Origin: Hormiphora californensis | Lineage: Eukaryota; Animalia; Ctenophora | NCBI GenBank assembly: GCA_020137815.1 | Contig: CM035359.1 | Coordinates: forward strand, 3,906,001-3,970,000 | DNA length: 64,000 bases | Direction of reading: 5' to 3' | Shown: positions 31,246 to 60,358 of the stretch, piece after piece | Layout of the letters: each line of letters begins with the position of its first letter | Numbering within the stretch: the first letter of the stretch is position 1 | The notes under the pieces: model-generated | What the model was told of the DNA's origin: nothing | Databases searched by the model: none | The model's input: only the letters and a program-made list of their open reading frames with translations | Made by a program: the position numbers and the translations under genes

Positions 31246-31884
31246 AATAATGATTTGATTTTGTTGATTTGTGATTTCTTAAAATGCATTTTCGCCAAAT
31301 TCAGTGCTTGTTACTTCTTTATTTCTGAAATAGCATCATTTGACATTTCTATCACGTTATTCGACAACCAGTAAGTTAAAAACCTAGGTCGAACACATTG
31401 TCAAACTTGGTGTCACGCGCACAGTCTTCGTCTTGATGAAAGCACACAACTTCGCGCGTACTCATTTTAAATTTCACATGCTTTTCCTGACGCGCACTTT
31501 TGGTCATATTGGAGACACCATACTGGGATATTGGACACATTTAACTACCATACCATAATTCTGCTTATTCAGCTGTTTTCTGAAATAACAGATCAGAGCA
31601 GAAAAGGAGTCCAACTGCTGATTAGGGGTGTCTATCTCCAAAGATTTGCGCCAAAACAGTGTGCTTTCATTACAGTGACACACCCGCGCGCGACAAAACA
31701 ACCAGTGTGAAGAAAAAGATCAAGAGGCTTCTTCAAGTGAGGGACTGCCCACTGGCCACTACACTGAGGACACATGATACAGTAACACAGCGAGAACAAT
31801 ATTTTTTATATCGGGAAATAAATAAGAAATATATAACTTTTGTCGCTATAAAAGTTTAAATCACATAAAACACACAATTAACTA

Positions 31885-37393: not shown

Positions 37394-38647
37394 GATATAT
37401 ATCCTGTATGGAAAAAGATAACATTAAAAATCTGTTCCCCATGCACATTGCTTTGGTGGGGTAAAGTTGGAGTAAAGTATTTTGAATCCGACTTTACACC
37501 ATACATTATAATTCCGATCTGCCCCTCATAAAATAATTCCATGAGGAACAATATCAAATCTACATATCATAGCGCTGGCAAGCGCCCGGGGCCCAATCCT
37601 CCCTCCCCCCAACCATCCTTCCCTTAAAAATGTCCATTTTCCAAGCATTCTTGCTTCCATTGAATGGAAAATCGAAATTGCGAAAAAAAAATTTTTTGAA
37701 TTTTTTGAAAATTTTTGAAAATTTTGACAGCGCTACTATACTTATTGTCTGAAATCGGCAATTTCAACTTTGTTTTAGACAACCTTCCCGTTGTCCTACG
37801 AACTTGTCGCTTGGTAGTTCGTGTTGCCTTGACACCTAGAGCACACGTTGAAAATTTCATGCAAATCGGAGTTACGGTTTTTACGTTACAGAGGGTCGTA
37901 TTTTCGACAAAATGTCCGTTTTTCGCGTCACGAACGACAGTAAAATAACCACTTTTTTGCGTACACAATAGAGGCCACAGTTTTAAAGCTATCACCATGA
38001 AACTTTGGGAGTCGGTAGGTCTAGTGGTGTACCTTGTATTAAAGCTTGGACAGAGAAAACGGACAGTCATAACAAAAGTTATGACTGTCTTAAGTTTTCT
38101 TTGGCGTTTAAGATGGCCTTCCCGTCGTTCTACAAATACGCCGCTTGGTACGCGGTGTTGCCTTGACATCTTGAACACACGTTCAAAATTTCAAGCAAAT
38201 CTGAGTTGCGGTTCGTCAGTTACGGGCATCTGACTGTATTAAGATTTAAGACGATTTTCAAAAAACCTAGAAAAGAGCAAATTAAACTACAAATCATGAT
38301 TTTATCATATATATTTTGCCAACGTATGTCAACTGCTGTATTTTCAGGTATAATTGGTAGTCATATCTAGATTTATGACTGTCTTAAATTTAAGACGATT
38401 TTAAAAAAACCTAGAAAGAAGCGATTCAGAGTCTAAATTAACATTGAATCAGATTTATGTTATAAAATTAGGTTTATTGCCGCATTTTCAGTTACAATTG
38501 GTAGTCATATCTAGAGTTATGACTGTCTTAAATATACGACGATTTTTAGAACACCTCGAAAGAAGCGATTCAGAGTCTAAATTTCCAGTTAAAATTGGTA
38601 GTAATGACTATAGTTATGACTGTCTTAAATAAAACGAGAGAGAGAGA

Positions 38648-38691
<44 letters not shown>

Positions 38692-38750
38692 GAGAGAGAG
38701 AGAGAGAGAGAGAGAGTAAGAGAGAGAGAGATAGAGATAGAGATAGAGAT

Positions 38751-38827
<77 letters not shown>

Positions 38828-38861
38828 GTCACCAATTACCTCCACTTAGCAGCCAATTATT

Positions 38862-38938
38862 CATCACTAGTATATATTGTACTGATTAGTTAGCCCCCGA
38901 TGGGGGCTAACTAATCAGTACAATATATGCTAGTGATG
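38862..38938. other. 37-bp stem, 3-nt loop hairpin; candidate left terminal structure
   Basis: catcactagtatatattgtactgattagttagccccc-gat-gggggctaactaatcagtacaatatatgctagtgatg, with one G-T mismatch. Confidence 0.85.
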
Positions 38939-39119
38939 GATTAAACAGCTAATCGTCATAATTACAATTGACATGCTGCTAACTAATCACAACATTCTAT
39001 GCTATAGTGATGGTTCAACTAATCGTGATAGCCAATTGACATGCTGTTAGCTAGTTACTGGGCGCTAACTATTATGTTACTAACATCGAATAATGTAATG
39101 AGTAGTCGCATTGTTTTGG

Positions 39120-39158
39120 TATAAAAACCAGATGGAAAAACCAAAGAGTATCACTTCC
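39120..39158 (+). promoter_or_regulatory. TATA box plus initiator for the element's large gene
   Basis: TATAAAA at 39120 and TCACTTCC at 39151 (31-bp spacing), about 80 bp upstream of ATG 39235. Confidence 0.6.
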
Positions 39159-39234
39159 GTTTGAATCGTAAAGTTCCTGATACAGATAAATCACAACAAT
39201 TACTCGATTGTCATTAATCCTTATTATATCTATT

Positions 39235-42200
39235 ATGTCTAAACTAGCTGTTGACTCACCATCGGTAAGTTGATTGTAATTGTATCTTAATTCTATTCTA
39301 CTGTTTGCGTTTACCAGTTTGTTGATGTTTGTTGTGTTTAGCCAAGTTTAATTTGTCCCAATTCTTAGGTGGTCGTGCTATCTGATAGCCTCTTCAAGTA
39401 CTTTGATAAGAAGCCATTACCTGCCCATGTGACCAACTTGTTCGTCAGTGGTGACAGGGTCGAGAGAATGACCCACCGTGTTAGTAATCTGCCTGTCGAC
39501 AAATCCGTTGATGATATCATTGTCATGGTCGGCACAAACGACCTCTGGCAACGATTTTCCTATTACACGTTTGCCAAATTCTACCACAACCTTATTGCGT
39601 GCATTGCTGACACATGGCCCTCTGCTGATATTCATTGCTGCCATATTCCGCCGAGGACGCATCAGCGTCAGAGAGGTACGTTGCGTTGCCTTACAAGTTG
39701 AAATTGTAACTTACTAAAATTATTAATTATCTATCACCCAGAACAATTGACTTATTGTAATGTCTTCTTCAGTTGCACCGTACATACCGTTGTATAATGA
39801 GGTAATCACGACTACTGCTGAACAGTTGGTTTCTGTGGTGCCTGTACCATCTGAATGGAGAGACCACATTCACTTGGCAAGGGACGGCCTTCACCTCGGC
39901 TACCCTGGTATCCAGCTGTATAGAAAGGCCACTATGGCATCTATATTTTACAAGAAGGTAAAGGAGAATTGTAACAGCTTGAATTAGGTGTTAGTAAACA
40001 TCCCTACTAAAATATAGTTCGACGCGACGCGACGCGCGATCGATGAACGATCGATAAACAATCGATATCGATCGTTTATCGATCGTTTATCGATCGTTCA
40101 TCGATCGCGCGTCGCGTCGCGTCGAACTATATTTTAGTAGGGATGTTGCATCGTTCGTAATCATGAATTATATCTGATATGTCTATATTGCTCTTCGCAG
40201 TACGTATAATATGTAAAGTAGTACAGTAGTGGTAATAGCAGTGCTATAGTGTATTATAGTTTCAAATTTCAATATTGTTTACGCTATGCTACATTTCATT
40301 ACAGGTCGCCACAGAGATTGTTCATGTCCCCGTCCAGCCCGTCTCAATAGAATCGCCCATCATTGCCACTACGGTGAAAGATATCACGATTCAATCTGAC
40401 CTAGTTGACCTACCAGTGGACCTACCAATCCAATCGGTAAGTATTCATAACCTATTTTGCTCGTGGAGTTGGAGTGCTAGGCCATGTTATAGAACGTGTA
40501 GCAGTACTAGCAATTAGTGGTTGTACAAACAAGCACTATTAGTCTTAGTACAGTAGCGGTAATCCGTAAAGCAGTGCTATAGTGTATTATAGTTTCAAAT
40601 ATCAATATTGTTTACGCTATGCTATGATATATTTCATTGCAGGTCGCCACAGAGGTTGTTCATGTCCCCGTCCAGCCCGTCTCAATCGAATCGCCCATCA
40701 TTGCCACTACGGTGAAAGATAACACGATTCAACCCGACCTAGTTGACCTACCAGTGGACCTACCAATCCAATCGGTAAGTATTCATAACCTATTTTGCTC
40801 AGTTGGAGCTGCTTAGGCCATGTTATATAGAACGTAGTAGCAGTACTAGCAACTTAGTGGTTGTAACAGTAACACTAGCACTATTAGTCTTAGTACAGTA
40901 GTGGTAATAGCAGTGCAGTGCTATATAGTGTATCATATTGTTTAAGCTATGCTATAATATTCTTCATTACAGGTCACTGCAGAGGTGTTACAAGTCCCCG
41001 ACCGACCCGTATCTATAACATCGCCTGTAATTGCCGTGAAAGATGTCACAGAGGTTGTCCAAGTGCCGTTCCCAATAGAATCTCCCACTGAAATTCAGTT
41101 TGGGGAGTTACACTATGATCACGGTATTCTCCGTCCGGATGTAAAGGTTAGAAGCGTTACCATTTTATGTGATGATCATATACTTAGTTCGTATTAGTCG
41201 CACTATTAGTCTTTATACAGTTATAGTGGTAGTAGCAGTGCAGTGCTATATATTGTATCATATTGTTTAAGCTATGCTATAATATTCTTCATTGCAGGTC
41301 ACCGCAGAGGTGTTACAAGTCCCCGACCGACCCGTATCTATAACATCGCCTGTAATTGCCATGAAAGATGTCACGATTCAATGCGACCTTACAGATGATC
41401 TACAAGTGGAGCTACCAGTCCAATCAGTAAGTATACCATTTCTTATTTTTCTCTGTGTTTATTTTAATTTTATCACTACATATTAGCGGAGTCCATTTTT
41501 ATATTTAACACTTTTCTTAGGTGTCAAAACCGAACAATTTAATAAGTCAGCAACTAATTGGAAAGCGGCATCCCCCAGTACCTCTAACACCGTCTCCGAA
41601 GCCACAATCATCTACCCGCCAGCACCGAAAGGATACCCCCTATATCATGCCGACTAGAAAACAGGTATAGTTACATTCAGTTTTCAAAGCAACATGGAAA
41701 TTATATGTACTGTGCAGGTGGACACCGTAATAATTGAGAAATTATTAGTATTTTTTATCACTTTTAGCGGAGTCCATTTTTATATTCAACACTTTTCCTA
41801 GGTGTCAAAGCCGAACAATGTAATTGGAAAGCGGTATCCCCCAGTACCTCTAACACCTTCTCCGAAGCCACAATCATCTACCCGCCAGCACCGAAAGGAT
41901 ACCCCCTATACCATGCCGACTAGTAAACAGGTATAGTTACATTCAGTTTTCAAAGCAACATGGAAATTATATGTACTGTGCAGGTGGACACCGTAATAAT
42001 TGAGAAATTATTGGTATAGTACAAAATTAATTTATCTTTACCATCAGATGTACAAGAAGCGGTCCGTGATACCTGATTCAATGGTTTTACCACATGCAAA
42101 TGGTGCAGATGTAATCTTTTGTGGCAGATTCATCCACTTTACCACTGAGCTACCAGTACTGGAGACACCCGTTTCAGAAGAGGTAGTTTATGGAGGTGGT

Positions 42201-45200
42201 GGGAAAAGTCTTAAGAGGAAATCTTCATTCACACGAAAAACCAGACGAAATAAGAGTAATATTGGTACGTACAAGCTAATTAGTTCAATTACATGTTCAT
42301 TTTATAATTCATTATTATCTTCTTACACTTCCAAAAAAATTAGTTGATATTGATAAAGATCCGATTATCCGTACTAACTTTGTCCTTTCTCCTCAGTTAC
42401 TACGCAACCTACCACTAACAGCGACGAGAATTTTGCAGACATAATTGATGAGGCTGAGGCTCTTAATGCACTACCTCGAGAAGCAATTACTGTCGATACA
42501 ACGTCAAAGTACATAAGGTATAACAAATCAGAGAAAGGACTGAAACGTAGTGCTAAATATTTACTGAACCGTTCATTGTCACAGCCTCACAGCACCATCC
42601 ATACCAATCATTCTCAGTCTGACAGTAGTGAGCAACGTAACCAATCACAGCCGGTCACTACCTCTGTATCGAGACACGTCACATATAACCATTCAGAGAA
42701 GGGGATTGCACGGAAAGTGGCTCATCTAGTTAGAGTTTTATCTACACCCGGTCACATTGAACACATGCGAGCACTTTCGGCACGTAGATCAAGGACAAGG
42801 AGGGCACGGAAGGCAAGCGGGGACCGGTGGGTAAAGCATTACGCTCTGTATCTGCGACGGCGCTCACGGATGCATCAGCAATCTAAAGACAGATTAAATA
42901 GAAGGAAAGGTATCATGGCTAGAGGGCTTAGATTACGTAACACTATTCGTGGTAACATTTCATTTCCTGTTGATTTTGATATACGTGGTTCCAATAGAAA
43001 AGTGGCACTATCTGTGATTAGAAGTCATGATACATCCAGAACTCCTGAGTCAGTTACTCGTTCTTTTAGACTTAATAAGTCTACAATCATTCATGGGAGG
43101 TCAAAGTGCCGATTGCCCATTTTGCCTTTGAGCCGTCACAAGTTTATAGTCAAGTCCAAGTCTCGGATGGGTACTGCATCTCGTGCAAACTTCTACATAG
43201 CGGCACAGAAAACATTAGGTAATGCTCTTGGACACTTTAGTCGTTCTGCGTTACACAATATCAATAAAGTACTGTTTGATGAAACCCCACCCCCTAAGCC
43301 AATTTGTTCTAAAAACTTTATGGTTGCCCGTATATGTAAGTCATTAATTGGTAGATGTCTTGAACGGCGTGACCAGTGGGTTAAGATTGTATATTCTGCC
43401 ACTAGTGATCTTATTGACAATGCCGCTGCTATCCTAGCAAAACAGGATCTGACAAATATGGAGGACTCTGAACTTCTTGGGGGTGCTACTCATGGGGTCG
43501 GTTTTGAACCATTCTTTCCTCAGCACAGTTTTCTTAATGGTAAACATTATAAGTTTGATAAAAGCAAGGGAAGTTCGCCTTGTACGGTTGATTGCATTCC
43601 CGCAGATCAGGACGATATCCAGTCCTTTAAAGAGCTTCTCTCAATTGTCGAGTGTTCTAATGTTTCTAGGGGCAGGGAGCTGTCTATGTTACTGGTTAAG
43701 TGTTCCAACCAACTTACAAGGTCTAGTGAGCAGGACCGTTATTTGCTAAATGTTGAGCACAGCAATCATCCTGAAACCTGTTACCGTCCTCAGAGTCTTT
43801 GTAACAGCAAGCTTGTCCTATTAAAACGACTTGCTGTTCATTATGCTGTACCCAGGCAGTTTCTTACTTGTGTCAGTCGACTTAACATGGCGCACAATTT
43901 TATATGTGATCTCGATTCCGCTGTATCGGCGGGCGATATTGAATATCTAATGAAACTTTTAGCGTACATTCCTTATATTAGTCCTACTATTATAAAACTA
44001 GATAGGTGTTCTGTTCATGTGAATGAAGACACAATGAACGAAAAATATGGTTCTCATTTTCAGACATTTGTCGAGAGTATTTCCAATCTCTCCGAGACCG
44101 CGTGTGTTTCTTGTACCCGTTTAATACTTGATTCTGAATCAATCCTTCTGACTCCACGTATCATTACCCCCCGTCTTAAGAATCCTATGTCTGGCTATAG
44201 CAAACTATTTCAATATCTTAACTCTTCTGATCGCAAACGAAAAGGTTATAATCCTGTATCGAAGCTCGAAGGGATGCGAGTTTGCAATTATTGTCACACA
44301 CGTCTTATAAAGGGGGAAGTTCCTAGGATTGGAATAGAGAACCATATGGATCCTGGTGTTGTGCCGGAATGTATTCGCAAGCTCACTCAGATTGAGCTTA
44401 TGTTTATCAAACCCATGTCAATGTATCAGAGCATTACGTACTGCGGAGCAGTTGGGGGATACGTTAGGAAATCAGAACAGCAGAGGCGTGCGAAAGGTCA
44501 TGCAATCTATCTTCCGGTACCACTTAACGACACTATTGAAAAGCTAATGCTTTGTTCTGGAAAACCTAGGAAGCTTTTAGATATTCCTAGTCATGTGAAG
44601 TTAATTGGTATTCCAAAGGCCGATAGAAGTACCTGGATGAGGTTAATTAATATCAATCTCATTTATGAGTGCCTGCAGTGGCTAAAAGCCAACAATCCTA
44701 ATTATTGTGATATTGTGATTCCAGAGTCAGCAGACTGCCTTTTAGACTTTTTAGCCGATATCCCTACTAGTGACGAGTCATCTAACGGCAACTGTTCTAA
44801 TGGGAGTCATCATTCAGGCGATGTTCCTTCTGTGATCGTTAGTCAAGGGAATGGTAGCAATAGTACCGATGAGCTTATTTCCATCGACTTGGACGCGACA
44901 AGCTCTAGTTATACTTCTGATGAAGTTGGTGCTCCAGGTGTCAAGGGGTGTGCAGTTGCTACTAGGAAAAGGGCGTTGGTGGATGACAGCAGTTGCGAGG
45001 AGGGCGAGGGCAGGTGTCATCATTCAGGTTCTGGGTCTGCTCCTTCTATGATCGTTAGTCAAGGGAATGGTAGCAATAGTACCGATGAGCTTATTTCCAT
45101 CGACTTGGACGCGACAAGCTCTAGTTATACTTCTGATGAAGTTGGTGCTCCAGGTGTTAAGGGGTGTGCAGTTGCTACTAGGAAAAGGGATTTGGTGGAT

Positions 45201-48200
45201 GACAGCAGTTGCGAGGAGGGCGAGGGCAGGTGTCATCATTCAGGTTCTGGGTCTGCTCCTTCTATGATCGTTAGTCAAGGGAATGGTAGCAATAGTACCG
45301 ATGAGCTGATTTCCATCGACTTGGACGCGACAAGCTCTAGTTATACTTCTGATGAAGTTGGTGCTCCAGGTGTTAAGGGGTGTGCAGTTGCTACTAGGAA
45401 AAGGGCTTTGGTGGATGACAGCAGTTGCGAGGAGGGCGAGGGCAGGTGTCATCATTCAGGTTCTGGGTCTGCTCCTTCTATGATCGTTAGTCAAGGGAAT
45501 GGTAGCAATAGTACCGATGAGCTTATTTCCATCGACTTGGACGCGACAAGCTCTAGTTATACTTCTGATGAAGTTGGTGCTCCAGGTGTCAAGGGGTGTG
45601 CAGTTGCTACTAGGAAAAGGGCTTTGGTGGATGACAGCAGTTGCGAGGAGGCCGAGCCCAGCTCTAAGCGTGGTGGTATGGCAGATATTGCTACCACCAA
45701 TGTAATTTTAGATATCTGCCGCCGACTTATAGCTAGTTGTACTCTTTGTAAAAAATGCAGAGTGGATATTAACAAAACTAGGTTAGACCTTGGGACCTTC
45801 GGTTATGTTACATATAGTTCTAGTGATCTCCGGAAACTGCTTTGTGATTTACGCCTTTCTTATTTAAGTCTCAATTGTAGAAGTGTCGTTTGTAGTATAA
45901 GTAATTGTAATGCTCCTTTGAATGGCCGTAAAAAAGCGTTGAAAAAGGTAGGGAAATCCAAAAATATTGCCTGCAATATTGACAGCTTTTGCTCAACCGT
46001 GGAACTAATTAGACAGAATTATATTATGTCTATGGAAATACTGGATCACCTTCTAATAGCTAACCAAATATGCAAAGGGTGTCTCTCATGGTTGTCTAAA
46101 AAAGCAGCAGTACCTGATGCAGCCTTCATGCTCGTTAGTATCAAGTCAACTAAACCTATGTTAAATATTTACCTTTTATCTGAAAGGCTTTATGCATACC
46201 TTAATAACATGAAATGTTTAAATGGTTTAAAGGCCAGTGGACAGTGTCATCATTGCCTAGGTGTCGTTCCAGATGAGTTGAGTAAGGAATTGTTTAATTC
46301 AACTGACTGTATCTCCGGTGAGGAGGGTATCATTGGTGCAACTTCTATGTTTCAGCAATTGTCTCAATTAATTAACTGTACTCGTTCTTCTTGCGATAGT
46401 TCAACCTTACCGGGACGAAAGAATGCTGGTGGATGTGACACTGGTCCGGTCAAAAGTTCTAATCTTGACTCTGCAAAAACCAATAAGGATATTGATACTG
46501 ATATTGATACTGATATTGATACTGAAAGCAATTCATCTCTTTCGAAATCCTTATCAGGTTCTGCAGCAGAAAGTGCAGTTTCTTTTGATTCGTTTCCAGG
46601 TCTAAGTGACATCAATGATGATGTCATTAAAAATGGTCCAATGATCGAAAAAATGAACCGTGATGACTTTCTTAACTTTGTTGATAGTTACACGGTTACA
46701 GGTATAGATCAGCAAACGGACGACCCGTACACTGATTTATACAAACTTTTAAAAGTCGATAGCAAGCCTGGGGATTTTAACGATCCCCTTATTGAAAATT
46801 TGTGTTTTCCAGAATTGTTCCCATTTGGCGAAGGCACCAAGTCGGATGCCAGGGGGGAAGATAGCGATGCCAAAGTGGGTCATTTACTTTACGAGAAAGC
46901 TAGGTTGCTATCAGAAAATGGGACGTTTAGGAGAAATATTCCTTACCTTTTTTATCTTGCGTCTCAAAATGAGAAGAGAAAAATTGGTCAAGGTATATCT
47001 GCTGCCTTGCGTAATGTGTCTGGATTTGGTAGTCTCACATCTCGCCAAATTCTGGATATGATCCAGAACAACGACGAGAAATTAATACGCCACATGACTA
47101 GGACCATGTCTAATATTCCTGGTACTGAGCAGTACTTTAGTTCTGCAAAAGTTAAACTTAGGGCCCAAACTGAGAAATTTGGACCACCAACATTCTTCGT
47201 TACCTGCAGCCCTGCCGAATTTGACTGGAAGGAGCTAACTGCTCATTTACGGGAGCGCAATAAGGATATTCCTGATGTTGATAGACTTTCGGATAGCGAA
47301 CTTATAGCAAGGGATCCTGTTACCGCGTCGTCATACATACATCGCAAATTCGATGCTCTGTTAAAGTTTATAGTGGAATCTAAATGCCTGGGCGAGGTTA
47401 AAAGCTGGTTTGTGAGGCATGAGTACCAGACTCGTGGTACGGTACATTATCATTTTCTTTTATGGATTAAGGATGCTCCTGTAATTGGTAAGGATAGCGA
47501 TGAGAATGTTGCCAATTTTCTAAGTGAACGTATTACTTGTCGTATCCCTGATGCTGTTAACGAACCAAAACTACATAGGATAGTTACTAAGTTCCAGAAA
47601 CACCGGTGTGGGCCTTACTGTAAGAAAAAGTTTAGGCATAGGAATGGCCACTTTATATCTACACAGTGCAGGTTTTCATTTCCTCGTAGTCCATCAAAGG
47701 TCTTCAAGTTGCACGATGTTAAGGATACTATAGTTGGGCGGCGTTCAGGCAACTTGAAGAAACGTCTCTATAGCTTACCGCGAACGAAGGATGAGGTCAA
47801 CATCAATGATTATAATGCAGTTATTTCATATTTATGGGAAGGTAATATTGATATCCAGTTCCTTTCGGAGAAATCATTCAGTGTCTCGGCATATGTTAGC
47901 AAATACTGCCTGAAGGCCGAGAAGAGTAATCTAAACTTCTCAATTGAAAACACTACTGGTAACAACATGACTGCAAATCAGCAATTTCATAAATTTGTAT
48001 ACAGTTGTCTCCGGCAAAGAGAGATGAGTGCTATGGAAGCTGCAGACCGCATACTCCACAATAATGGCGAAATGTGGAGAAGTTCCGAGACATTCGAATG
48101 GGTTCCAACTGTTTCTCCCGGTCATGGTCGACGTAGGTTAATGAAAAAGTACAAGGATTTAGAAGGTCAGGATCCTAATTCAACTGATGTTTTTATTCCT

Positions 48201-51200
48201 GATATGATTCATGTATTTTATCCTAATCGGCCTCAATGTCTTGATGACATGAGTCTTCATGATTTTGTTTCCACGTATGAGCGGTTATACGGGAAAACGG
48301 GTGGAGATGTCCTTATTCGCGATCCCACTACTAAAAAGGTCTTGGCACGATTCAAGAAACGGGCTAAGCAACCGATCATATACCACCATCGGTATTCCCA
48401 CAGGACTAAGCCAGAAAAGTTTTACTATTCACTGCTTGCTCTTCATAAGCCCTGGAGAACGGAGGGCGATATTTTAGGGCCAAGTGCAACCTATGAAGCT
48501 GAGTTCTTTAGGTGCATTGCGGACAGGTCTGAGCTTAAGTCGCGGGCAGAGGCCATAATTAACATAGAGCAAGCCCGTGAAACCATGGAGCAACGCGTCA
48601 ACGAGGACCTCACTAAGGGGCCAGAATCCCAGCAATGTTCTGATGGGATCGAAAACGATGCTCTGATTGCATTTGAGGCTTCTAGGTCTGGGGCAGCTGT
48701 ATCATCTGATGAACTTGAAACTATCATTCAAACCTTGAATATAGATCAGCGGTCCATTTTCGATTTAGTTGTTGATAAAGTTACCAACGACAAGCAGCTC
48801 CTTCTTTATGTCTCTGGGTTTGGGGGGACAGGGAAGTCTTATGTTTTAAAAGCAATAACTTCCTATATTAGGCTCCATAATAAAGATGTCCTTCTAGCTG
48901 GTCCTACTGGTCTTGCTGCTAAAAACATTTCGGGTATGACTCTGCATTCGATATTTAATCTTCTGGTTGAGCACGGTTGTCAGCCTAAGTACAGTGCCCT
49001 TAAAAAACCGGTCTTGGATCAAATGCGGGCTGTTTTTAAAGATCTTCAGTGCATAATTATTGATGAAATTAGCATGGTTTCTAATGTTCTCCTCTTATAT
49101 GTCCATTTTAGGCTTAACGAGATATTTGCTCCTGGTGGTGGTCAGCTATTTGGTGGTAAACACGTTATAGTGTTTGGGGATTTGCTTCAACTTCCCCCAG
49201 TTATGGCCCAGCCTCCCTATGTTACTTTGCCTGAAATAGAAGTTCATAAATTAACTAACGGCCTACCTCAAGAAATTAACCTATGGCAACATTTTGAATT
49301 TAAAGAGCTTACCATTAATCAGAGGCAAAAGGGCCAAGAAAATAAATTGTATTCCGATCTCTTAGGAAGGTTAAGGCTTGGTGCATGTATTCCAGATGAT
49401 TTTAGTATGCTTAATTCTAGGGTTATAAACTTGGGGGGGACGTCGCCGGAAGAGCTACGCAAGTCACTGGTAGATCGTTATCTGTCAGTTGCCCAGATCG
49501 AACCGTCTGTCGTATGCCTTCTACCTAAACGATCCATGGTTAAAGATTTTAACGGGGCTATAATGGCACGTAATTTCCCGGATGCAGAAAAGGTCGAGGC
49601 GGTAGATGAGGTGGAGCAATCAGGGAGGAAAAACAAGAAGTTGGAGAAGAACATTATGGACGCAGTTAGAAAGTTAGATGACGAAGGGGATGATAGGAAC
49701 ACAGGGGCTCTAGAAAAAGTTCTCTTTCTAGCCCCGGGTGTAAGGTGCATGTTGAGGCAAAATCTCGATGTACCGAATGGCTTGACAAACGGCACAATCG
49801 GTACTATTGTGACACTTCAGAGGGACAACGGAGGAGTAGTGGATAAACTGGTTGTGCAGTTTGATGGATGTAAGGAACCTGTCACTATACACCGCGAGAA
49901 ACGGAAGATCATGGTATTTACAAACGGTTACTTCTACAGGGAACAATTCCCCGTCACCGTGTGTTACTCGATGACCGTTCACAAGAGTCAGGGTTTGTCG
50001 CTTAAGTCTGCATTTGTGGATATCGGTCTCTCCATCTTTGAAGCTGGTCAAGTTTACGTTGCCTTGTCAAGGGTCACCTCTATGGCTGGGTTACATATAA
50101 TCAATCTAGCACCTGCAAAAATATTTGCGAGAAAGGACGCGTTGGTGGTTTACAAGCACATGGGAAGCAAGCCTTTGCATGATTCAGTTAGACCGGGGAA
50201 TCAGGAGCCTGTCGAGCCTGGTCCAGGAGAGCGTATTTGGTATACTACTGCATCGTCTAGGTTGGCTAGAAGTACTATCAAATCGACAATTTCCAATATG
50301 GCATCAAAGGTTAAGGATAAGGTTAAGCGTACCCTCAAAGGTCCTCTTCCTACTACCACTAAAAATCCTTCTAAGCGGTGTCATAGCGATGTCCTCAGTG
50401 TTACTTCTGATAATCTTTCTAGTCATATAGATGCTGTGTTTGCTATTACGTCACGTTCTAGCTATTTTCATAATTTTACTCGTATCGAGATTGCAACTAT
50501 TTATTCAGATTTGATACTTCCAACAGCCCAATTAGTGGCTGCCGGCAGGGTTCCATCTACTTTAAGGTGCGAACTATCTCTTCAGCTAAACCCTGATCCA
50601 TTTTCAGTATTAAGTTACACCCGATATAAATGGTTAAGTGGGTCACTCATGACACGGTATATATGGTATCTGCAGGATACCATTCAAAATTTGTCCATGT
50701 ACAGTATGGGGTACGGGGTTGAAGAATCGTATGGTATTGTAGGGCTAAACAAGAGTGAAGAACACTTTAGCCAAAAACGATTTTGCCTCAAGCAATACTC
50801 CTTAAATGGCACTGCTGCCAGGTACAGTCGCAGAGGTGAAATCGTTAAGGCCGGCCATCCAATGGATAAGGATTTAGTTGTTGTATTAGGAAACCCAGGT
50901 AATCATTGGATCCTGGTAATAGTAGACAATAGACCATCTAAGAGGTGCGTCTTATATTTTGATTCTGCCAGTAAAAGCATCCCTAATTCCCTCAAAAAGA
51001 GGAGGTGTCAGAAGTATGTAGCGTTCATTAAGAAATGGTGTGATTACTTACCAATAAAATATGGTGTCTGCAGTAGTGCTGGCGGTATAATGGATACCGC
51101 TACGTATAGGTTTACTAATTTAGACGGTAAATCCAATCAACAGGACAATACTTATGACTGTGGCGTATTTGCTCTTTCAAATTTAGAACAGTACTTGTTG

Positions 51201-51305
51201 GGTAATGCGGTGACTACGGTTCGGGCTCGTGACATGGTTGGAATTAGGGCACAACTCATGCACCGCATTTACACCCATGGGATCAACACTGGGTACATCG
51301 TTTAG
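39235..51305 (+). CDS. Spliced SGNH hydrolase - repeat linker - Rep/Helicase - C48 protease protein (~3,495 aa, 11 exons)
   Basis: Exons 39235-39264, 39369-39675, 39773-39957, 40305-40436, 40643-40774, 40973-41146, 41298-41426, 41521-41664, 41802-41930, 42048-42264 and 42397-51305. All are GT-AG, phase-compatible and free of stops, totalling 10,488 nt. Confidence 0.75.
39369..39957 (+). CDS. SGNH/GDSL hydrolase domain (exons 2-3 of the element gene)
   Basis: Block I VVLSDSL, block II SG, block III MVGTNDL, IPPR, and block V DGLHL in the next exon. Confidence 0.85.
39997..40147. mobile_element. 151-bp near-perfect palindromic MITE in intron 3 of the element gene
   Basis: aacatccctactaaaatatagttcgacgcgacgcg... 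is mirrored by ...cgcgtcgcgtcgaactatattttagtagggatgtt. Confidence 0.8.
42576..51305 (+). CDS. Helitron RepHel ORF (HUH Rep plus Pif1-family SF1 helicase) with C-terminal Ulp1/C48 cysteine protease
   Basis: Rep motifs FFVTCSPAEFDW, EYQTRGTVHYHFLLW and YVSKYCLKAE. Helicase motifs GFGGTGKS, IIDEISM, GDLLQLPPV, QFPV...TVHKSQGLSL and GQVYVALSRV. Protease motifs HWILVIVD, YFDS and QQDNTYDCGVF. Confidence 0.97.
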   Translation: MSQPHSTIHTNHSQSDSSEQRNQSQPVTTSVSRHVTYNHSEKGIARKVAHLVRVLSTPGHIEHMRALSARRSRTRRARKASGDRWVKHYALYLRRRSRMHQQSKDRLNRRKGIMARGLRLRNTIRGNISFPVDFDIRGSNRKVALSVIRSHDTSRTPESVTRSFRLNKSTIIHGRSKCRLPILPLSRHKFIVKSKSRMGTASRANFYIAAQKTLGNALGHFSRSALHNINKVLFDETPPPKPICSKNFMVARICKSLIGRCLERRDQWVKIVYSATSDLIDNAAAILAKQDLTNMEDSELLGGATHGVGFEPFFPQHSFLNGKHYKFDKSKGSSPCTVDCIPADQDDIQSFKELLSIVECSNVSRGRELSMLLVKCSNQLTRSSEQDRYLLNVEHSNHPETCYRPQSLCNSKLVLLKRLAVHYAVPRQFLTCVSRLNMAHNFICDLDSAVSAGDIEYLMKLLAYIPYISPTIIKLDRCSVHVNEDTMNEKYGSHFQTFVESISNLSETACVSCTRLILDSESILLTPRIITPRLKNPMSGYSKLFQYLNSSDRKRKGYNPVSKLEGMRVCNYCHTRLIKGEVPRIGIENHMDPGVVPECIRKLTQIELMFIKPMSMYQSITYCGAVGGYVRKSEQQRRAKGHAIYLPVPLNDTIEKLMLCSGKPRKLLDIPSHVKLIGIPKADRSTWMRLININLIYECLQWLKANNPNYCDIVIPESADCLLDFLADIPTSDESSNGNCSNGSHHSGDVPSVIVSQGNGSNSTDELISIDLDATSSSYTSDEVGAPGVKGCAVATRKRALVDDSSCEEGEGRCHHSGSGSAPSMIVSQGNGSNSTDELISIDLDATSSSYTSDEVGAPGVKGCAVATRKRDLVDDSSCEEGEGRCHHSGSGSAPSMIVSQGNGSNSTDELISIDLDATSSSYTSDEVGAPGVKGCAVATRKRALVDDSSCEEGEGRCHHSGSGSAPSMIVSQGNGSNSTDELISIDLDATSSSYTSDEVGAPGVKGCAVATRKRALVDDSSCEEAEPSSKRGGMADIATTNVILDICRRLIASCTLCKKCRVDINKTRLDLGTFGYVTYSSSDLRKLLCDLRLSYLSLNCRSVVCSISNCNAPLNGRKKALKKVGKSKNIACNIDSFCSTVELIRQNYIMSMEILDHLLIANQICKGCLSWLSKKAAVPDAAFMLVSIKSTKPMLNIYLLSERLYAYLNNMKCLNGLKASGQCHHCLGVVPDELSKELFNSTDCISGEEGIIGATSMFQQLSQLINCTRSSCDSSTLPGRKNAGGCDTGPVKSSNLDSAKTNKDIDTDIDTDIDTESNSSLSKSLSGSAAESAVSFDSFPGLSDINDDVIKNGPMIEKMNRDDFLNFVDSYTVTGIDQQTDDPYTDLYKLLKVDSKPGDFNDPLIENLCFPELFPFGEGTKSDARGEDSDAKVGHLLYEKARLLSENGTFRRNIPYLFYLASQNEKRKIGQGISAALRNVSGFGSLTSRQILDMIQNNDEKLIRHMTRTMSNIPGTEQYFSSAKVKLRAQTEKFGPPTFFVTCSPAEFDWKELTAHLRERNKDIPDVDRLSDSELIARDPVTASSYIHRKFDALLKFIVESKCLGEVKSWFVRHEYQTRGTVHYHFLLWIKDAPVIGKDSDENVANFLSERITCRIPDAVNEPKLHRIVTKFQKHRCGPYCKKKFRHRNGHFISTQCRFSFPRSPSKVFKLHDVKDTIVGRRSGNLKKRLYSLPRTKDEVNINDYNAVISYLWEGNIDIQFLSEKSFSVSAYVSKYCLKAEKSNLNFSIENTTGNNMTANQQFHKFVYSCLRQREMSAMEAADRILHNNGEMWRSSETFEWVPTVSPGHGRRRLMKKYKDLEGQDPNSTDVFIPDMIHVFYPNRPQCLDDMSLHDFVSTYERLYGKTGGDVLIRDPTTKKVLARFKKRAKQPIIYHHRYSHRTKPEKFYYSLLALHKPWRTEGDILGPSATYEAEFFRCIADRSELKSRAEAIINIEQARETMEQRVNEDLTKGPESQQCSDGIENDALIAFEASRSGAAVSSDELETIIQTLNIDQRSIFDLVVDKVTNDKQLLLYVSGFGGTGKSYVLKAITSYIRLHNKDVLLAGPTGLAAKNISGMTLHSIFNLLVEHGCQPKYSALKKPVLDQMRAVFKDLQCIIIDEISMVSNVLLLYVHFRLNEIFAPGGGQLFGGKHVIVFGDLLQLPPVMAQPPYVTLPEIEVHKLTNGLPQEINLWQHFEFKELTINQRQKGQENKLYSDLLGRLRLGACIPDDFSMLNSRVINLGGTSPEELRKSLVDRYLSVAQIEPSVVCLLPKRSMVKDFNGAIMARNFPDAEKVEAVDEVEQSGRKNKKLEKNIMDAVRKLDDEGDDRNTGALEKVLFLAPGVRCMLRQNLDVPNGLTNGTIGTIVTLQRDNGGVVDKLVVQFDGCKEPVTIHREKRKIMVFTNGYFYREQFPVTVCYSMTVHKSQGLSLKSAFVDIGLSIFEAGQVYVALSRVTSMAGLHIINLAPAKIFARKDALVVYKHMGSKPLHDSVRPGNQEPVEPGPGERIWYTTASSRLARSTIKSTISNMASKVKDKVKRTLKGPLPTTTKNPSKRCHSDVLSVTSDNLSSHIDAVFAITSRSSYFHNFTRIEIATIYSDLILPTAQLVAAGRVPSTLRCELSLQLNPDPFSVLSYTRYKWLSGSLMTRYIWYLQDTIQNLSMYSMGYGVEESYGIVGLNKSEEHFSQKRFCLKQYSLNGTAARYSRRGEIVKAGHPMDKDLVVVLGNPGNHWILVIVDNRPSKRCVLYFDSASKSIPNSLKKRRCQKYVAFIKKWCDYLPIKYGVCSSAGGIMDTATYRFTNLDGKSNQQDNTYDCGVFALSNLEQYLLGNAVTTVRARDMVGIRAQLMHRIYTHGINTGYIV
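44807..45651 (+). repeat. In-frame 216-bp (72-aa) tandem repeat, about 4 copies, inside RepHel
   Basis: tcatcattcagg recurs at 44807, 45017, 45233 and 45449. The peptide unit is ...NSTDELISIDLDATSSSYTSDEVGAPGVKGCAVATRKRALVDDSSCEE. Confidence 0.95.
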
Positions 51306-51650
51306 TAGAATATTTTCTATTATCATTATTGCAATTTCTTTTCTGTGAAAAGTGATTTATGTGAAAACCGATTTTTCTGTGAAAACTGATTTCTGTGCAA
51401 ATGAATTCTGTGAATTCTGTGAATGTTTCAAGAGCGATTAATTGTGGCAGATTCTGAATAACAATTACATATTCAAACCTGAAAACTGTATTTTACTAAT
51501 GTCTTATTCCAAACCTTAGGCAACGTTCAACACGTACTAAAACGAATGACGCACCCCCCTCCCAGCTAAACTGCTCATTGCGCAATTTATTGAACCTGTA
51601 CACTACCTCTTGGATAATCGTATAACTAACATAATCACTTCCCATTTAGA

Positions 51651-52756
51651 ATGGCGTTGCTAATTGTTATGATATTTCTGTCGGCCAGTGCAACTAAGGA
51701 CTTCATAGTGTACGAGAAACAAGCGATGCTCCTAGTGAAGGACGACATTGTTCCACGTATGTAATTGTGACTTTTTGTTGGCTGTACTACTGTGTGTAAC
51801 ATAACGTATGTGGTCTTGGTAAGTAAGTATTTACATTTCCTGCCCCTCTCCGTGTATTTAGAAGGTATTTCATATATTAACACCTACAACCATCGCAGAT
51901 TATGGGGATGAGACTCTACTGAGGCTTCACCTTGTTGTACCTAAGCCTGCCATTATAAGGCCAGCACGAATGCGACTTGCGATCAAAGCTCAAGAGGATG
52001 TGGCCACATTACGACTCTTTCAACCGTAAGTATTATAATATTATAATATTAATAATAGCGGATAGCTTTAGGAAGTCTACAATGTTCTAGTGAAGACTTT
52101 ATTATTATTAGTAATTACAGCTACTATCCAGGGGCCAGGTCTAGATGGGCTGAATGGTTATTAGCACACGTCTAGAATTGAGGGAGGATTTCTTAATATG
52201 ACGTTTACCAAAGAACATCATACTCAGGAATCTCATCATTATGTTCACCCAGGTGTATAAAATATTGGATGGACATGGAAGATACTTTGATGGAACGAAT
52301 ACAATCCTGTTCTTGTCAAAACCCGACAAGTAAGTTGAACACTGCTTCTAGAGCCAAATCTTCTCAGTTTGACTTGGAACTACGTGAATCCAATTGAATA
52401 ATACCATTTGCATTATAATAATATAATGTACAAACTAAATTACGGAATTTTCAAATAGGAAAACGAAGAAAGGCCGGGTCCACCGCTGTCAGCAGAGATG
52501 GATATTTACGAGGCCTCATGATGAACGATGCTGAAGTCCGTAAAGGCCTCAAAAATCAGGTAACATAAGCCTCATGCTAAATTATGTGGTAATAAAGTCG
52601 GACAAACTCCAATTGACTCTAAAATGGCATGTGTCCTTTCAGGTTAAGATCAACAAAAACGACATAGTGATACATATGCTATTCGCACAAGAACTGAAGA
52701 TCAAATGGGAGATCGATAGCTGCATGGATTCTGCAATTGATTACTTCGCACAGATT
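51651..52756 (+). CDS. Spliced secreted or membrane protein gene (5' part) with signal peptide and furin-like RKRR; possibly envelope-like; exon 3 disrupted
   Basis: Exons 51651-51756, 51899-52025, 52121-52329, 52459-52559 and 52643-52756 have compatible phases. The protein starts MALLIVMIFLSASA and contains PTRKRRKAG...GYLRGLMMNDAE. Three in-frame stops lie at 52173-52196. The 3' part is lost in noisy sequence. Confidence 0.45.
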
Positions 52757-52797
52757 GTAAGCATCTTCATACTCCTTCTCTCACTCTCTATAATCTC

Positions 52798-52849
<52 letters not shown>

Positions 52850-53029
52850 CTCTTCCCCCTCCCCCCTTTCCTCTCCTCTCCTCCTCCCCTCTTTTCCTCT
52901 CTCTCTCTCTCCCCTCTTCCTCCCTTCCCCTTTTCCCAATTTTTTTTCAATTGGGGGCAAAGGAGGGGGGTCACGGGGGATGTTTTTTTTGGGGGAAAAA
53001 AAAATGAAAGGTTTTAATTTTTTTTCAGT

Positions 53030-53061
<32 letters not shown>

Positions 53062-54990
53062 CAGGAACGGGAAAAATGGGATTTAAACCCAAATAAAAAG
53101 GGGGTTTGGGGCCCTTTAACTTTTGGGTTTTAAAGATTTTTCTTTTCCATCCTTTTCTTAAAAGGGGAAAACTCTGAAATTCAGAATGGGAAAAAGGGCT
53201 TTTTTTTAAAAAAAATTACCCCCTTAAAATGTTTTTCCTTTTATTTTTTCCCAAAAAACAGCCACGGGTAAATAAAAGGAGTGGCAAAAAATTTGGGGAT
53301 TCAAACCCAATCTTTTTGTTTTTTTCCCAATTTCTTAAGCAGGGCAATCCCCTTGCCTTTTCTCCCGGGAAATTTTTTTAAAAAACAGGTATGAGGTTTA
53401 AAACATGTTGGGTCGTTAAAGGTTCTCCCCCCCTACGGTTGCCAAACCAAAACCCATTTCTAAAATCAAAATCAAAAACACTGCTCGGCCCAAAAAATTA
53501 AAAAAACCCCCCATTTCCATAGGGGGTTTAAAAATGGTGATGCCCTTTTTTTCTCCACCCCGTTTTTCCCCAAAGGGAAAGGGGGGGGTTGTCTTTTTTT
53601 TTAAAAGGAAAATTTTTCATAAATTTTTCTTTGCCCCCGGGTTTCTTCTCCCCGGGGGGGCAGCTGCCCCCAATTGTTTAGTCTTTTCTTGGGGAAATTC
53701 CTGAAATAAAATCGGGAAAAAACTGCAGACCCCCCTCTAGGGAAAAGCGGGCCCCCAACCTAACTTTTAAAACAGCGTTCCGGGGACACTTTTTTCAGTA
53801 AACCCCGGTTTTGGGGCCCAAACCCCCGGTAACTCAATATGAAGCTTTAATCATCACCGCCTTTTTTTTTAAAACTACACTTTTTTATACTTTTGGTTTT
53901 CAGCAAAACCCGGTTTTATTTTCCGGGAAAAAATTGGGGTGCCCCAGTTTTTTAAAAAAATTAAATCCAAACCCCAAGGTTTTTCCTTTAAAAAGGTTAA
54001 TTTTTAGGGTAATTATCCCAAAACCCAGGGCTCCCTTCCCCTTTTTAAAAACCCTAAAAGAAGTTTTTCATCAAATAAAAAAACCTTGAGAAAACAGAAA
54101 AAACCGTTTTTAAACAAACACCAAGTTTTCCCGGAAAAAAAAATGCAGCCCAGTTTTTAAAAAAGGGTACACACTTTTTAAAAAAAAAAGGCCCGGGTTA
54201 TCAAAATTTTATTTAAATTTGCTACCCCTTTTTGCTCAAAAAAGTTTATTTGGTTTTTTGTTTTAAATTAAGTTTTGGTTGTGACTTTGTTTTAAGGTGA
54301 AAAATTTAATATTTCCCCCCCGAAAAAAATTTTTTTTTAACAATTGAAAAAACGAAAAACCCAATTTTTTTAAATTTTTTTAATTGTTTATTTATTTTAA
54401 TCTATGTTATTATTTTTTTATGTTTTATTCCAGTTTTAAACCCTTTAAATAAAGTTTTAAATCAGGGGTATTCTATACCAGTGGCAATCTTTTTGGCACA
54501 GGCTTTTTGACGGGAAAAAGGGGATCCAAAAATAATTTTCTTCTCTCTCTCCTCTCTCTTCCTTTCTCCCTCTCCTTCTTTTCCCCTCTCTCCCTCTCAT
54601 CCTCTCCCCCTCTCCCTCTCTCCGCCTCTCCCTTTTCCCCCCTCCTCCTCCCTCTCCCCTTCTCAAAACCCCTCCTCTCTTTCTCCCCCCTCCTCTCTCT
54701 TTTCCCCTCTCCCCTCTCCCCTCCTCTCTCCTCTCTCTTTTATCTCTCCCTCTTTTTTCCTCTCTTTTCTCTCCCTCCCTTCCCCCCCCATGACCCCCAA
54801 ATTACAAAAAAAAAAAAAAAAACCCAAAAAAAAATACGGGCATTTGTTTTTATAAAAGATCCCCCCGCGCATTTTACCAAAAATTTTGGGTTTTGGCCGG
54901 GCAGGGGCCCCACCTTCCGACATTTTTATTTTTATTTTTCCTTTACAAAATTATATTGGTGTTTTTTAAAGGAAAAAAAAATAAAAAAAT
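52850..54990. other. Low-quality, homopolymer-inflated sequence
   Basis: Abrupt excess of A/T/G/C runs and degraded (CT)n tracts, unlike the flanks. This pattern is typical of unpolished single-read sequence. Confidence 0.8.
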
Positions 54991-57386: not shown

Positions 57387-60358
57387 ATGCGGATCCATGA
57401 CAGAAGATTCAAGTTCATTGCCTGTGGATGGGCTCTCCTTTTAATCACCTTTATCCTTCCATACAACCCACCCGTAACTGAGGATACTCTTGCTGGTGTG
57501 AAACAATCCAACAACAAATCCTCTGAACAAATCCAAACATTATCTGACAATGATTCACCCCCACCTGGAAATCAAAATGATCCGCCCCGACCCAAAGAAC
57601 TTCAAGAGGAGAGAGACAAAAAGCAGTTGTTTGTCATCCTGGTGACAGGTTTCAGAACGGGGTCAACCTTTCTGGGTTCTATCTTCAATCAGAATGATGA
57701 TGTCTTGTACATGTTGGAGCCTCTTCACCAGTCACATCTAGGGAGCTTGGCCATGAAAGGATTGATTCAAGGTGATTTTGGTAAATTCTCGTACATTATT
57801 CAACGCTTTTCCCATTTAATATGAAATTGAAGTTTTTGCCGGTGTCTAATTGTCTCAATTTCTACAGGAGTAAGTGAAAGCAGCACTAACTTGGATCAGC
57901 AGATAGCTTATCTCACCCAGATAATAAACAAATGTGACGTTGGATTTCCACATGCACCACACTTGAGTCGATGTAAGTCTGTCTTTCTATCCGTCTATAG
58001 ATAGATACAGATCTGTCTGTCTGTTTGTCTGTCTGTCTATCCGTCTATAGATAGATATAGATCTGTTTGTCTGTCTGTCTGTCCGAAACATCTAACTCCC
58101 ATCCAGCAATGCAATGTGATACCCCAGAGGAGAACGTGAGAAGATGGGGAGCTGAGAAATGTGATGTGGAACGGTGGAACATAGCATGCAAAAAGATGGA
58201 TTTCGTGGCTCTAAAGGTGAATTATGAATAGAATATAATTAGGTAGACACCAGAATTTCTTGCCTTGTTCGACCCTCCTCCCCAAAACAAAGAATTTCAT
58301 ACATTATTTTCAGGTAATCAGACTCCAGAGAATAGCACACCTGGCACTGGTACTAGGTATTGAGAATGCTAACATCAGGGTCATTCATCTGATCAGAGAC
58401 CCTCGGGGAACAATGAACAGTCGGCTGCCTTTTGAAAAGTTTATGCTTGATGTGAGTAAGGAAAAAATAACTCTTTCTTTATTGGCCAAAACTTAGATAT
58501 TTTTACGTATCTATGTAAACAGTAAAGGTATTTTACTTACTTACTTCTGCTTCTGGTTACTTCTGATGATTCGCCGCCGTTTACACTCCGACCGGGGTAT
58601 CGCTTGCTTGCAACTCCCCGTCGTTCAGTCTCATGTCTAGTATAGAGTTCCTGGAGCTTCGTACATATCCCGTAACTGGGGGACAGTCCGAAAACGACGT
58701 CAGGTATCTTGACAGCTGAACTTTGAATACCTGGAACTCGTCAATTTGATTAAGTTTTGCAGGTAAACAGTTCCATAGTCGTGGTCCCATAACAGCAAAG
58801 GATCCGTCATATGCTGTCTGTTTGGCCATAGTGGACAGTTTGGTCAATTTGGGAACCACAGCTCGAACTCCAAGTCGGCCTCCAGTTGTGAACCTTATTT
58901 TGAGGTCATTGGAGACTAGGCCGTGCATGATCTTCCACATGTGGAGAATGGAGTATCTCTCTCTCCTGCGCTGCAGGGAGCTAAGGCCCAGGTATTGCAG
59001 TCTCTGCCAGTAATCCATCCCCTTGCACTCAGAGATCCGTCTGGTGAAGGAGCGTTGCACCCCCTCTAAAACCTGGATATCCTGGATCTTGGTAGGATTC
59101 CAAAGAGGGCAGCAGTATTCCAGCAGGCTTCTTACCATGCTCTTGTAGAGGGTTACCATAACCCCTCTATCCCTGGTCGTGAACACACTAAACACCCAGG
59201 CTGCTTTCCTCTTAGCGTTTTCGGCGATGGTAGCGATGTGACCGGACCAGGTTAGATCAGAATGAACAAGCACGCCCAAATCCTTAACCGAGGACATAGG
59301 TTTCAGCAGCCCTGCTGAAGTGCTGTAGCTCAAGATATCAGCAGTAAAAGGGAGATGGTGCATGAGATGGTCACGTTCCTTGGATTCTATTGCTCTGCTA
59401 CAGATAGCCTTGTGTAGTTTCCTACATTCCGGACCCTTGGCACAACCTTTCTCTCCTTTCTTCCCCCAGGGGACACATAGTTTCGGATGAAAAAAGTCAC
59501 ACCTATCCTTACCGTCAGCAGATTTCTTCCCAGTTATGCCATGAGGACACCTACCCTCCTTGAGCAACATACAAGTAGTTTCGCACTCGTTTGGGAATTT
59601 TTCCGCCTCCTTCTGCTGTTTCGCGAGATTGGCCAGTGCTTCCAGCACAGTCGGATCGTCAGCATTCACCTTCTCGCTTGCCTCATCGTTCATTTTCGTT
59701 TTCCGTTCACTACCGGGCTCAACAATCGACAGACTGTTATTCCTAGACCTTCCAGGCGTATTCAGTCGCGATGAGACCTTGGTAGTAAGCGGTGTACCCT
59801 TTTCCTCATCTTTGGGAACACAGCACGGATCACATATCCAAACTTCTCCTACCAGGCTTGAAGCTTCATTTCTGGAAGTGATTACACTCACCAAAGGTTC
59901 ACAGTCATGGGAAGGTTGGTGACAGAGAAAACACCTCAGAGGAACGAGGCCATTCCTCTTGTGCTGGTAGATGTCGTTACATTCAGCACATTTGACTGGC
60001 ACGGTCAGGGCTTTGAGCTCCTGAGCAACCCTGAGAGCAATCCTGGGCTTTGTTTTCAGCTCTATGTCCTTAACCCCCTTTTCACCATATAGGGGAGGAA
60101 TACCGAGAAACTCCGCGAATTCATCGAGAATGGGTCGGTTAACCTTTGATAAGGACGCCTTATTGGCCCACACAGGTTGTGATGTATCGAAGTGTGTCAA
60201 GCAGGTTTTAACAGCTTCCGGACCAGTCCGAATCATCTCCCCGAGTACTTCCTTGGCTGTGCCATGTTTGTCATGATTGGCCATTACTTTTACCATAGGC
60301 TAGATCCTCAAATTAACTTGTTTAAAGTAGTGTTGAAAAGTTTGTTTATATTGGGATC

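Follow-up and report, generated by a model that had tools for sequence, protein, structure and literature searches.

The locus examined here raises the question of what a ubiquitin-type cysteine protease does when it is fused in frame to the Rep-helicase (RepHel) of a Helitron-like transposase. An earlier note on this DNA had placed a Ulp1/C48 domain at the RepHel C-terminus, where Helentrons usually carry an AP endonuclease, and had offered two roles for it: processing of the polyprotein to which it belongs, with the Gly-Gly motifs VVYGGGG and ELLGG as candidate cleavage sites, or deSUMOylation of host silencing factors. We addressed this question in the window, i.e. the whole stretch of 64,000 nucleotides, and by comparison with related transposases and known proteases.

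ORF analysis of the window revealed an uninterrupted ORF of 2,975 aa (42378-51305, +) containing the last coding exon of the transposase (42397-51305, +), which encodes, in this order, a basic arm, an unnamed conserved domain, DUF6570, repeats, a Cys-rich cassette, Rep, helicase and C48. The unnamed Cys/His domain (43302-44057, +), delineated by alignment of relatives, contains the ELLGG motif and gave no match in a Pfam search. It is followed by DUF6570 (44310-44729, +; residues 645-784, Pfam E 3.9e-18) and by an in-frame tandem array of 3.9 copies of 216 bp (44825-45656, +), which belongs to the linker upstream of the site termed A below. Downstream of the cassette lie the Rep (HUH) nuclease (47013-47906, +; Pfam Helitron_like_N, E 2.3e-25, residues 1546-1695), with the motifs EYQTRGTVHYH at 47421 and YVSKY at 47892, and a Pif1-family helicase (48735-50177, +; Pfam PIF1, E 3.7e-33, residues 2120-2336), whose motifs run from Walker A (48816) to VALSR (50046). 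The succession of Rep and Pif1 helicase in a single ORF and the presence of DUF6570 both assign the element to HLE2, of which DUF6570 is a marker, UCH being a marker of HLE2 subgroups c and d (PMC11417382). No Pfam match to an AP endonuclease, the C-terminal domain of Helentrons in the strict sense (subgroup b), was obtained in the ORF.

Ten further exons are predicted upstream (39235-42264, +). The resulting splice model comprises 11 exons from an ATG at 39235 with compatible phases (in exon 6, an in-frame GT donor follows 41146) and a predicted product of ~3,495 aa. Exons 2-3 (39369-39957, +) encode an SGNH hydrolase (Lipase_GDSL, E 5.6e-06, 27.1 bits versus a cut-off of 23.6) with Ser, GTND and DGLH motifs, the splicing of which to the transposase is predicted; the linker exons are duplicated and Pro/Val/Thr-rich, and exon 10 holds VVYGGGG. 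The upstream exons are matched in diverged DNA copies, whereas three introns are replaced there, and a search for relatives of these exons, including the SGNH exon, found none. An SGNH gene is carried by fish Helitrons as well, as a separate gene (PMC4021074). Intron 3 harbors a perfect palindromic insertion (40001-40146), which is covered very deeply in two runs, is missing from some contigs and is probably a high-copy MITE-like element. Comparison of 28000-39300 with 51300-54600 gave no convincing pair of element ends (subterminal inverted repeats, 3' hairpin, TT insertion site). A long hairpin with a ~36-bp stem (38865-38940), which an AG microsatellite directly precedes and which lies 300 nt upstream of the predicted start codon, could be the left end of the element or a separate insertion.

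Several other elements were observed in the window. Oriented divergently to the transposase is a gene (31885-37423, -) whose CxxC...HxxxxxH zinc-finger exons are repeated and which also contains a 500-aa ORF that gave no Pfam match; we take it to resemble a hAT-type transposase. It is accompanied by a fold-back element (28003-30104) whose ~700-bp inverted arms match at 98% and whose termini bear tandem repeats of 11 bp, a non-LTR retrotransposon with an uninterrupted 967-aa ORF encoding endonuclease and reverse transcriptase (21745-24648, -), a single-exon MFS transporter ORF (13169-14587, -; Pfam MFS_1, E 1.1e-26) and a 572-aa ORF with a weak Pfam match only (58581-60299, -), presumably a truncated LINE in which ORF1 is fused to a reverse-transcriptase tail.

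At the end of the long ORF and in frame with the helicase, Pfam, predicted structure and alignment define a clan CE/C48 protease domain (50460-51305, +); its end is the one given previously, and its start, formerly set at 50560, lies by structure ~100 nt earlier, near 50460. The Peptidase_C48 profile (PF02902) matched residues 2827-2968 (E 1.6e-11, 44.9 bits versus a curated cut-off of 20.7). The catalytic residues previously described as intact are indeed in place at His2843 (50904), Asp2862 (50961), Gln2922 (51141) and Cys2928 (51159), with the order His-Asp-Cys kept and the oxyanion Gln six residues upstream of Cys; in element rows covering the respective column they are conserved in 34/35 (His), 34/35 (Asp), 33/33 (Gln) and 35/36 (Cys). 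Clan CE enzymes thread Gly-Gly between two Trp residues, W448/W515 in the Ulp1 tunnel (PMC9603560), and both tunnel residues are present here as Trp2752 (50631) and Trp2844 (33 of 34 and 34 of 35 rows, respectively, in the alignment of element proteins).

The fold of the domain was predicted from a 51-row alignment with a pLDDT of 87.2 and a pTM of 0.88; prediction from the single sequence (pLDDT 34) was useless. Foldseek returned SENP1, SENP2 and Ulp1 as best matches of the model (E 9e-08). In structural alignment, SENP2 reached a Z of 19.9 and an rmsd of 2.8 over 213 aligned residues; Z was lower for NEDP1 (15.8), for bacterial CE enzymes (11-13.5) and for ASFV pS273R (11.8). Judged by pS273R versus SENP2 (Z 11.8 versus 19.9), the predicted fold is nearer to SENP than to viral CE enzymes. 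Profile match and predicted structure together identify the region as a Ulp1-type cysteine protease domain, C-terminal in a giant HLE2 transposase, as originally suggested. An acidic pair after Trp-Leu and an Asn-Ser-Phe-Phe patch have a role in SUMO binding. The acidic pair of host-type Ulp1/SENP enzymes is not conserved in the family (Asp in 6/34 element rows, Gly-Ser in this copy) and the Asn-Ser-Phe-Phe patch is absent from it, such that this copy reads WLSGSLM and YSMGYG versus WLNDEVI/WLGDEII and NSFF in the host-type proteins P0140 and P0145. Because both features are missing, a standard SUMO isopeptidase is less likely.

Relatives of the element were collected by a search with the Rep-helicase region, which gave 157 matches, of which 120 were listed. 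The best 28 of these 157 (38-48% identity) all possess the C-terminal C48 domain, and those among them with species names derive from the ctenophores Mnemiopsis leidyi and Pleurobrachia bachei, making a ctenophore the probable host. In 15 of the best 28 the domain is complete with PF02902, and the other 13 end after its first half, where they probably stop at an intron. P0030 and P0031, ranked directly behind these 28, carry OTU in place of C48, and OTU or UCH, mostly located after the helicase, is found in 47 of the 66 that follow (P0032-P0097). An endonuclease annotation was found in none of the best 98 of 157 relatives (P0002-P0099). The core tree was built from 114 of 121 proteins (P0065 and six others, without anchor, were left out), and the alignments exclude P0149 and a few short matches, which are likely chance or fragments. 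In this tree, the C48 proteins form one clade (SH-aLRT 100), sister to P0030/P0031 (100); both together are nested inside OTU/USP-bearing HLE2 in the core trees, and endonuclease-bearing proteins form a distant branch.

Since the tree places the C48 clade inside OTU/USP-bearing HLE2, C48 most likely took over from an OTU domain. The position equivalent to that of the Helentron AP endonuclease was correctly recognized in the earlier note; its occupant in the next relatives is mostly OTU/UCH (47/66), and the element lies outside the endonuclease-bearing Helentron group, so that no endonuclease gave way to the protease. A protease-only tree had too poor a resolution to name the C48 donor. Metagenome scans returned nothing or only distant elements and other helicases (80 loci). 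A separate arrangement was observed in P0041, a distant HLE2 transposase in which C48 lies in the N-terminal part (residues 1057-1168) and the helicase is followed by a USP-like tail.

Gly-Gly pairs alone are no evidence for cleavage, because the spliced protein contains 15 of them versus 11.3 expected from composition. Both motifs singled out previously do occur (VVYGGGG at 42183-42203; the Gly-Gly of ELLGG at 43479-43484). ELLGG can be dismissed as a cleavage site, as none of 23 covering relatives has Gly-Gly there and the motif sits inside the conserved Cys/His domain (LG-x-x-x-H) with a variable second Gly. VVYGGGG is still a candidate cleavage site, because it fits the hydrophobic-x-GG pattern described below and is situated between the linker exons and the basic arm.

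Conservation was instead found at two pairs flanking the Cys-rich cassette, both of them predicted cleavage sites from the alignment of relatives: site A (SSKRGG/MA, the slash marking the predicted cut; 45672-45677, +), where the linker that follows DUF6570 ends, and site B (RKNAGG/CD; 46428-46433, +) directly after the cassette. The linkers on either side of the cassette were cut out by profile anchors, and their Gly-Gly counts were compared with 2,000 shuffles. Gly-Gly is present in linker A of 27/27 cassette-bearing proteins (shuffled mean 10.7, maximum 19 in 2,000) and in linker B of 28/29 (shuffled mean 12.6, maximum 21 in 2,000), the exception being P0022; in linker B, 23/29 proteins display hydrophobic-x-GG, with 2.7 expected. 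With one protein per lineage (n = 14, core identity 39-70%), site A was retained in 14/14 (P 3e-06) and site B in 13/14 (P 2e-05), P values that overstate independence because of shared ancestry, possibly few genomes and borders drawn from profiles of the same proteins. Near-copies, which are not independent, retain the sites in 24/24 and 25/25 cases. KK in linker B (12 of 2,000 shuffles) was the only one of 13 control dipeptides to approach Gly-Gly, and in a ranking of all 400 dipeptides Gly-Gly came first in linker B and second, after RK, in linker A. On either side of each site, the ten adjoining residues are ~10% identical; P4 is nevertheless hydrophobic in 21/26 proteins at B and in 14/26 at A.

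No Gly-Gly excess was detected in the cassette body (9/29 versus 8.7 expected), in the N-terminal arm (5/21 versus 7.2) or in cassette-free linkers (0/68 versus 2.1), the latter being short (mean 50 aa) and hence a weaker control. The helicase-protease linker likewise shows none (5/30 versus 7.1 expected), and self-release of the protease was rejected for the same reason. A nucleotide cause for the pairs in the form of splice signals was rejected as well, the codons at A and B fitting no donor or acceptor in the DNA of this copy. Upstream of site A (about 45600-45671), the linker is enriched in RK in 12/14 and in KR in 10/14 representatives and appears NLS-like. A third Gly-Gly (R-x-K/R-G-G) precedes DUF6570 (about 44244) in 9/31 proteins, including the cassette-free P0027 and P0028, and reads KRKGY in this copy; it may represent a further site or a loop.

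Two natural variants bear on the function of the sites. Nested in the C48 clade, P0027 and P0028 are devoid of the cassette as well as of both sites and keep an intact C48, whereas the OTU-bearing sisters P0030 and P0031 possess the same Gly-Gly sites as the C48 clade. The in-frame fusion, the catalytic and tunnel residues, the conservation of the sites and the fact that both were lost along with the cassette are direct observations. Processing at A and B cannot be the sole job of the enzyme, because P0027 and P0028 retain it without sites, and since the OTU sisters share the sites, two unrelated folds would have to read them.

According to another reading, the domain is a deconjugase only, acting on SUMO, ubiquitin or NEDD8 in anti-silencing or in stabilization of the transposase, with the Gly-Gly pairs as uncut hinges that tolerate the cassette. 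Such a role would fit SENP1/2 and Ulp1 as best structural matches of the predicted model, the OTU/USP domains in the slot of 47/66 next relatives, which have no such sites, the C48 retained in site-less P0027 and P0028, and the proven deubiquitinase activity of Helitron VTD domains (PMC9741609). A hinge, however, should tolerate GS, SG, GA or GD, none of which is enriched, and has no need for a hydrophobic P4; moreover, the host-type acidic pair is variable (Asp 6/34) and the Asn-Ser-Phe-Phe patch absent. We regard this explanation as rather unlikely. The deSUMOylation alternative raised at the outset draws support from the intact enzyme of P0027 and P0028, and it is weakened by the same unconserved acidic pair and patch.

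That the sites outlived the apparent fold swap from OTU to C48 could also mean that a ubiquitin- or SUMO-type protease of the host cuts them and that the domain of the element acts elsewhere. Several sites, e.g. VLRGG and LALSGG, look like ubiquitin-family tails, and we liken them to those of ubiquitin and NEDD8. Host enzymes of this kind nevertheless read the whole modifier fold via an extensive interface (PMC9603560), whereas the cassette is without detectable ubiquitin-like similarity and a low-complexity linker precedes site A, which makes cleavage by the host very unlikely.

The cassette itself (45678-46427, +; by alignment 252 aa with 4 CxxC) is inserted between DUF6570 and Rep. In relatives it measures 278-475 aa, with 3-7 CxxC pairs across the whole clade and a median pairwise identity of 18%, the present one being the shortest of the family. 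A Pfam search with the cassette gave no match, and comparison with the Atlas yielded only matches below 0.9 and with low recognition. Substitutions of other samples, counted from 40 of 84 rows listed, 29 of them in frame, change the residue in 12/15 cases in the cassette (45800-46433) versus 0/11 in the core (Fisher P 5e-05), a hint that the cassette is host-facing or relaxed.

In this copy, neither site has a hydrophobic P4, with Lys at A and Asn at B. The family might self-process while this particular copy is decaying, its sites having drifted so that they are cut no more. In addition to the atypical P4 residues, the shortest cassette, the 12/15 listed cassette substitutions that change the residue, which fits relaxed selection, and the element ends not found (28000-39300 versus 51300-54600) are in line with decay. 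Against it stand an uninterrupted 8.9-kb exon, an intact triad, 11/11 listed core substitutions that are silent, and the preservation of both Gly-Gly pairs despite a long branch to the nearest relative, and we consider decay very unlikely.

Taken together, the conserved pairs at 45672-45677 and 46428-46433, and not ELLGG, lend support to polyprotein processing, and by analogy with viral enzymes we consider it probable, on balance, that the C48 protease cuts its own polyprotein after both Gly-Gly pairs flanking the cassette. The atypical P4 residues and shortest cassette of this copy, the absence of site B from P0022 and the SENP-like predicted fold speak against self-processing. Cleavage at A and B would yield three products: an N-terminal piece with DUF6570 and the basic, Lys/Arg-rich, NLS-like linker at its end; the free cassette of 252 aa; and a Rep-helicase-protease of 1,623 aa, in which the protease would stay attached to the helicase because the linker between them is without conserved Gly-Gly. 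The released, fast-evolving cassette may then be a host-facing factor. The slot after the helicase would long have been occupied by ubiquitin-type proteases (OTU, USP), with C48 succeeding OTU when the sites were already in place. The enzyme probably also strips a ubiquitin-like modifier from a host or transposase protein, a second substrate being suggested by P0027 and P0028, which keep C48 intact without sites.

More tentatively, these observations suggest a model, possible though far from assured, in which a clade of rolling-circle transposons uses virus-style maturation: a swappable C-terminal ubiquitin-type protease (OTU, later Ulp1-type) would excise a Gly-Gly-fenced zinc-binding cassette, release a counter-defence factor and license the Rep-helicase. 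Ulp1, OTU, USP and VTD domains recur across many transposon superfamilies, and self-cleavage was proposed earlier without sites. If true, the model would represent polyprotein maturation in a DNA transposon with a released effector, and virus-style maturation would explain why so many transposases possess deubiquitinase-like domains. The question is directly testable owing to two exact conserved sites, a natural protease swap (the OTU sisters) and a natural deletion (the cassette-free relatives).

Comparable arrangements are known from transposons and viruses. The HELIANO study, which sampled two ctenophores, describes Peptidase_C48, OTU and UCH as stably carried domains of Helitron-like elements (PMC11417382); there, they reside in ORFs separate from RepHel with a role in protein degradation, whereas C48 is here fused in frame at the C-terminus, and the sections covered mention neither cleavage sites nor a cassette. 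For Helentrons, OTU was suggested as a possibility to cut the Rep, helicase and endonuclease subunits (PMC4067079). The Helentron OTU and VTD domains are likewise ubiquitin-type proteases with RepHel, with activity shown for VTD, but they have other folds and belong to endonuclease-bearing elements, and the parts covered propose no cleavage sites (PMC4067079; PMC9741609). Ginger1 transposases use their C-terminal slot for OTU or Ulp1, never both, as seen here, and Ulp1 also occurs in Mutator-like elements; unlike RepHel, however, Ginger1 are DDE transposases, for which the portions covered report no evidence of self-processing (PMC2836005).

Among solved structures, SENP1/SENP2 and Ulp1 are closest (Z 19-20, rmsd 2.8-3.0) and have the triad, oxyanion Gln and two tunnel Trp in common with the present domain; they are ~16-18% identical to it, and their acidic pair and Asn-Ser-Phe-Phe patch are not conserved here. 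The ASFV protease pS273R shares the clan CE fold (Z 11.8) and cuts the polyproteins of its own virus, pp220 and pp62, at Gly-Gly-Xaa, after Gly-Gly (PMC8728581). It is a viral protein in its own right that processes structural precursors, whereas the protease described here sits within its presumed substrate and has a fold nearer SENP. With conserved Gly-Gly pairs at its module borders, the transposase resembles the polyproteins matured by CE proteases such as pS273R and adenain; the domain would act like these enzymes without belonging to them. A dual role has a precedent in viral OTU enzymes, which perform both polyprotein processing and ubiquitin removal (PMC3968130). Our literature search, the scope of which did not extend to subscription journals, Repbase reports and figures, retrieved no publication describing conserved Gly-Gly sites or a Gly-Gly-fenced cassette. 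Overall, C48 cargo alone is already known in such elements, and the features that set the present family apart are the C-terminal C48 fusion, which most likely replaced OTU, and the Gly-Gly-fenced cassette that is lost jointly with its sites.
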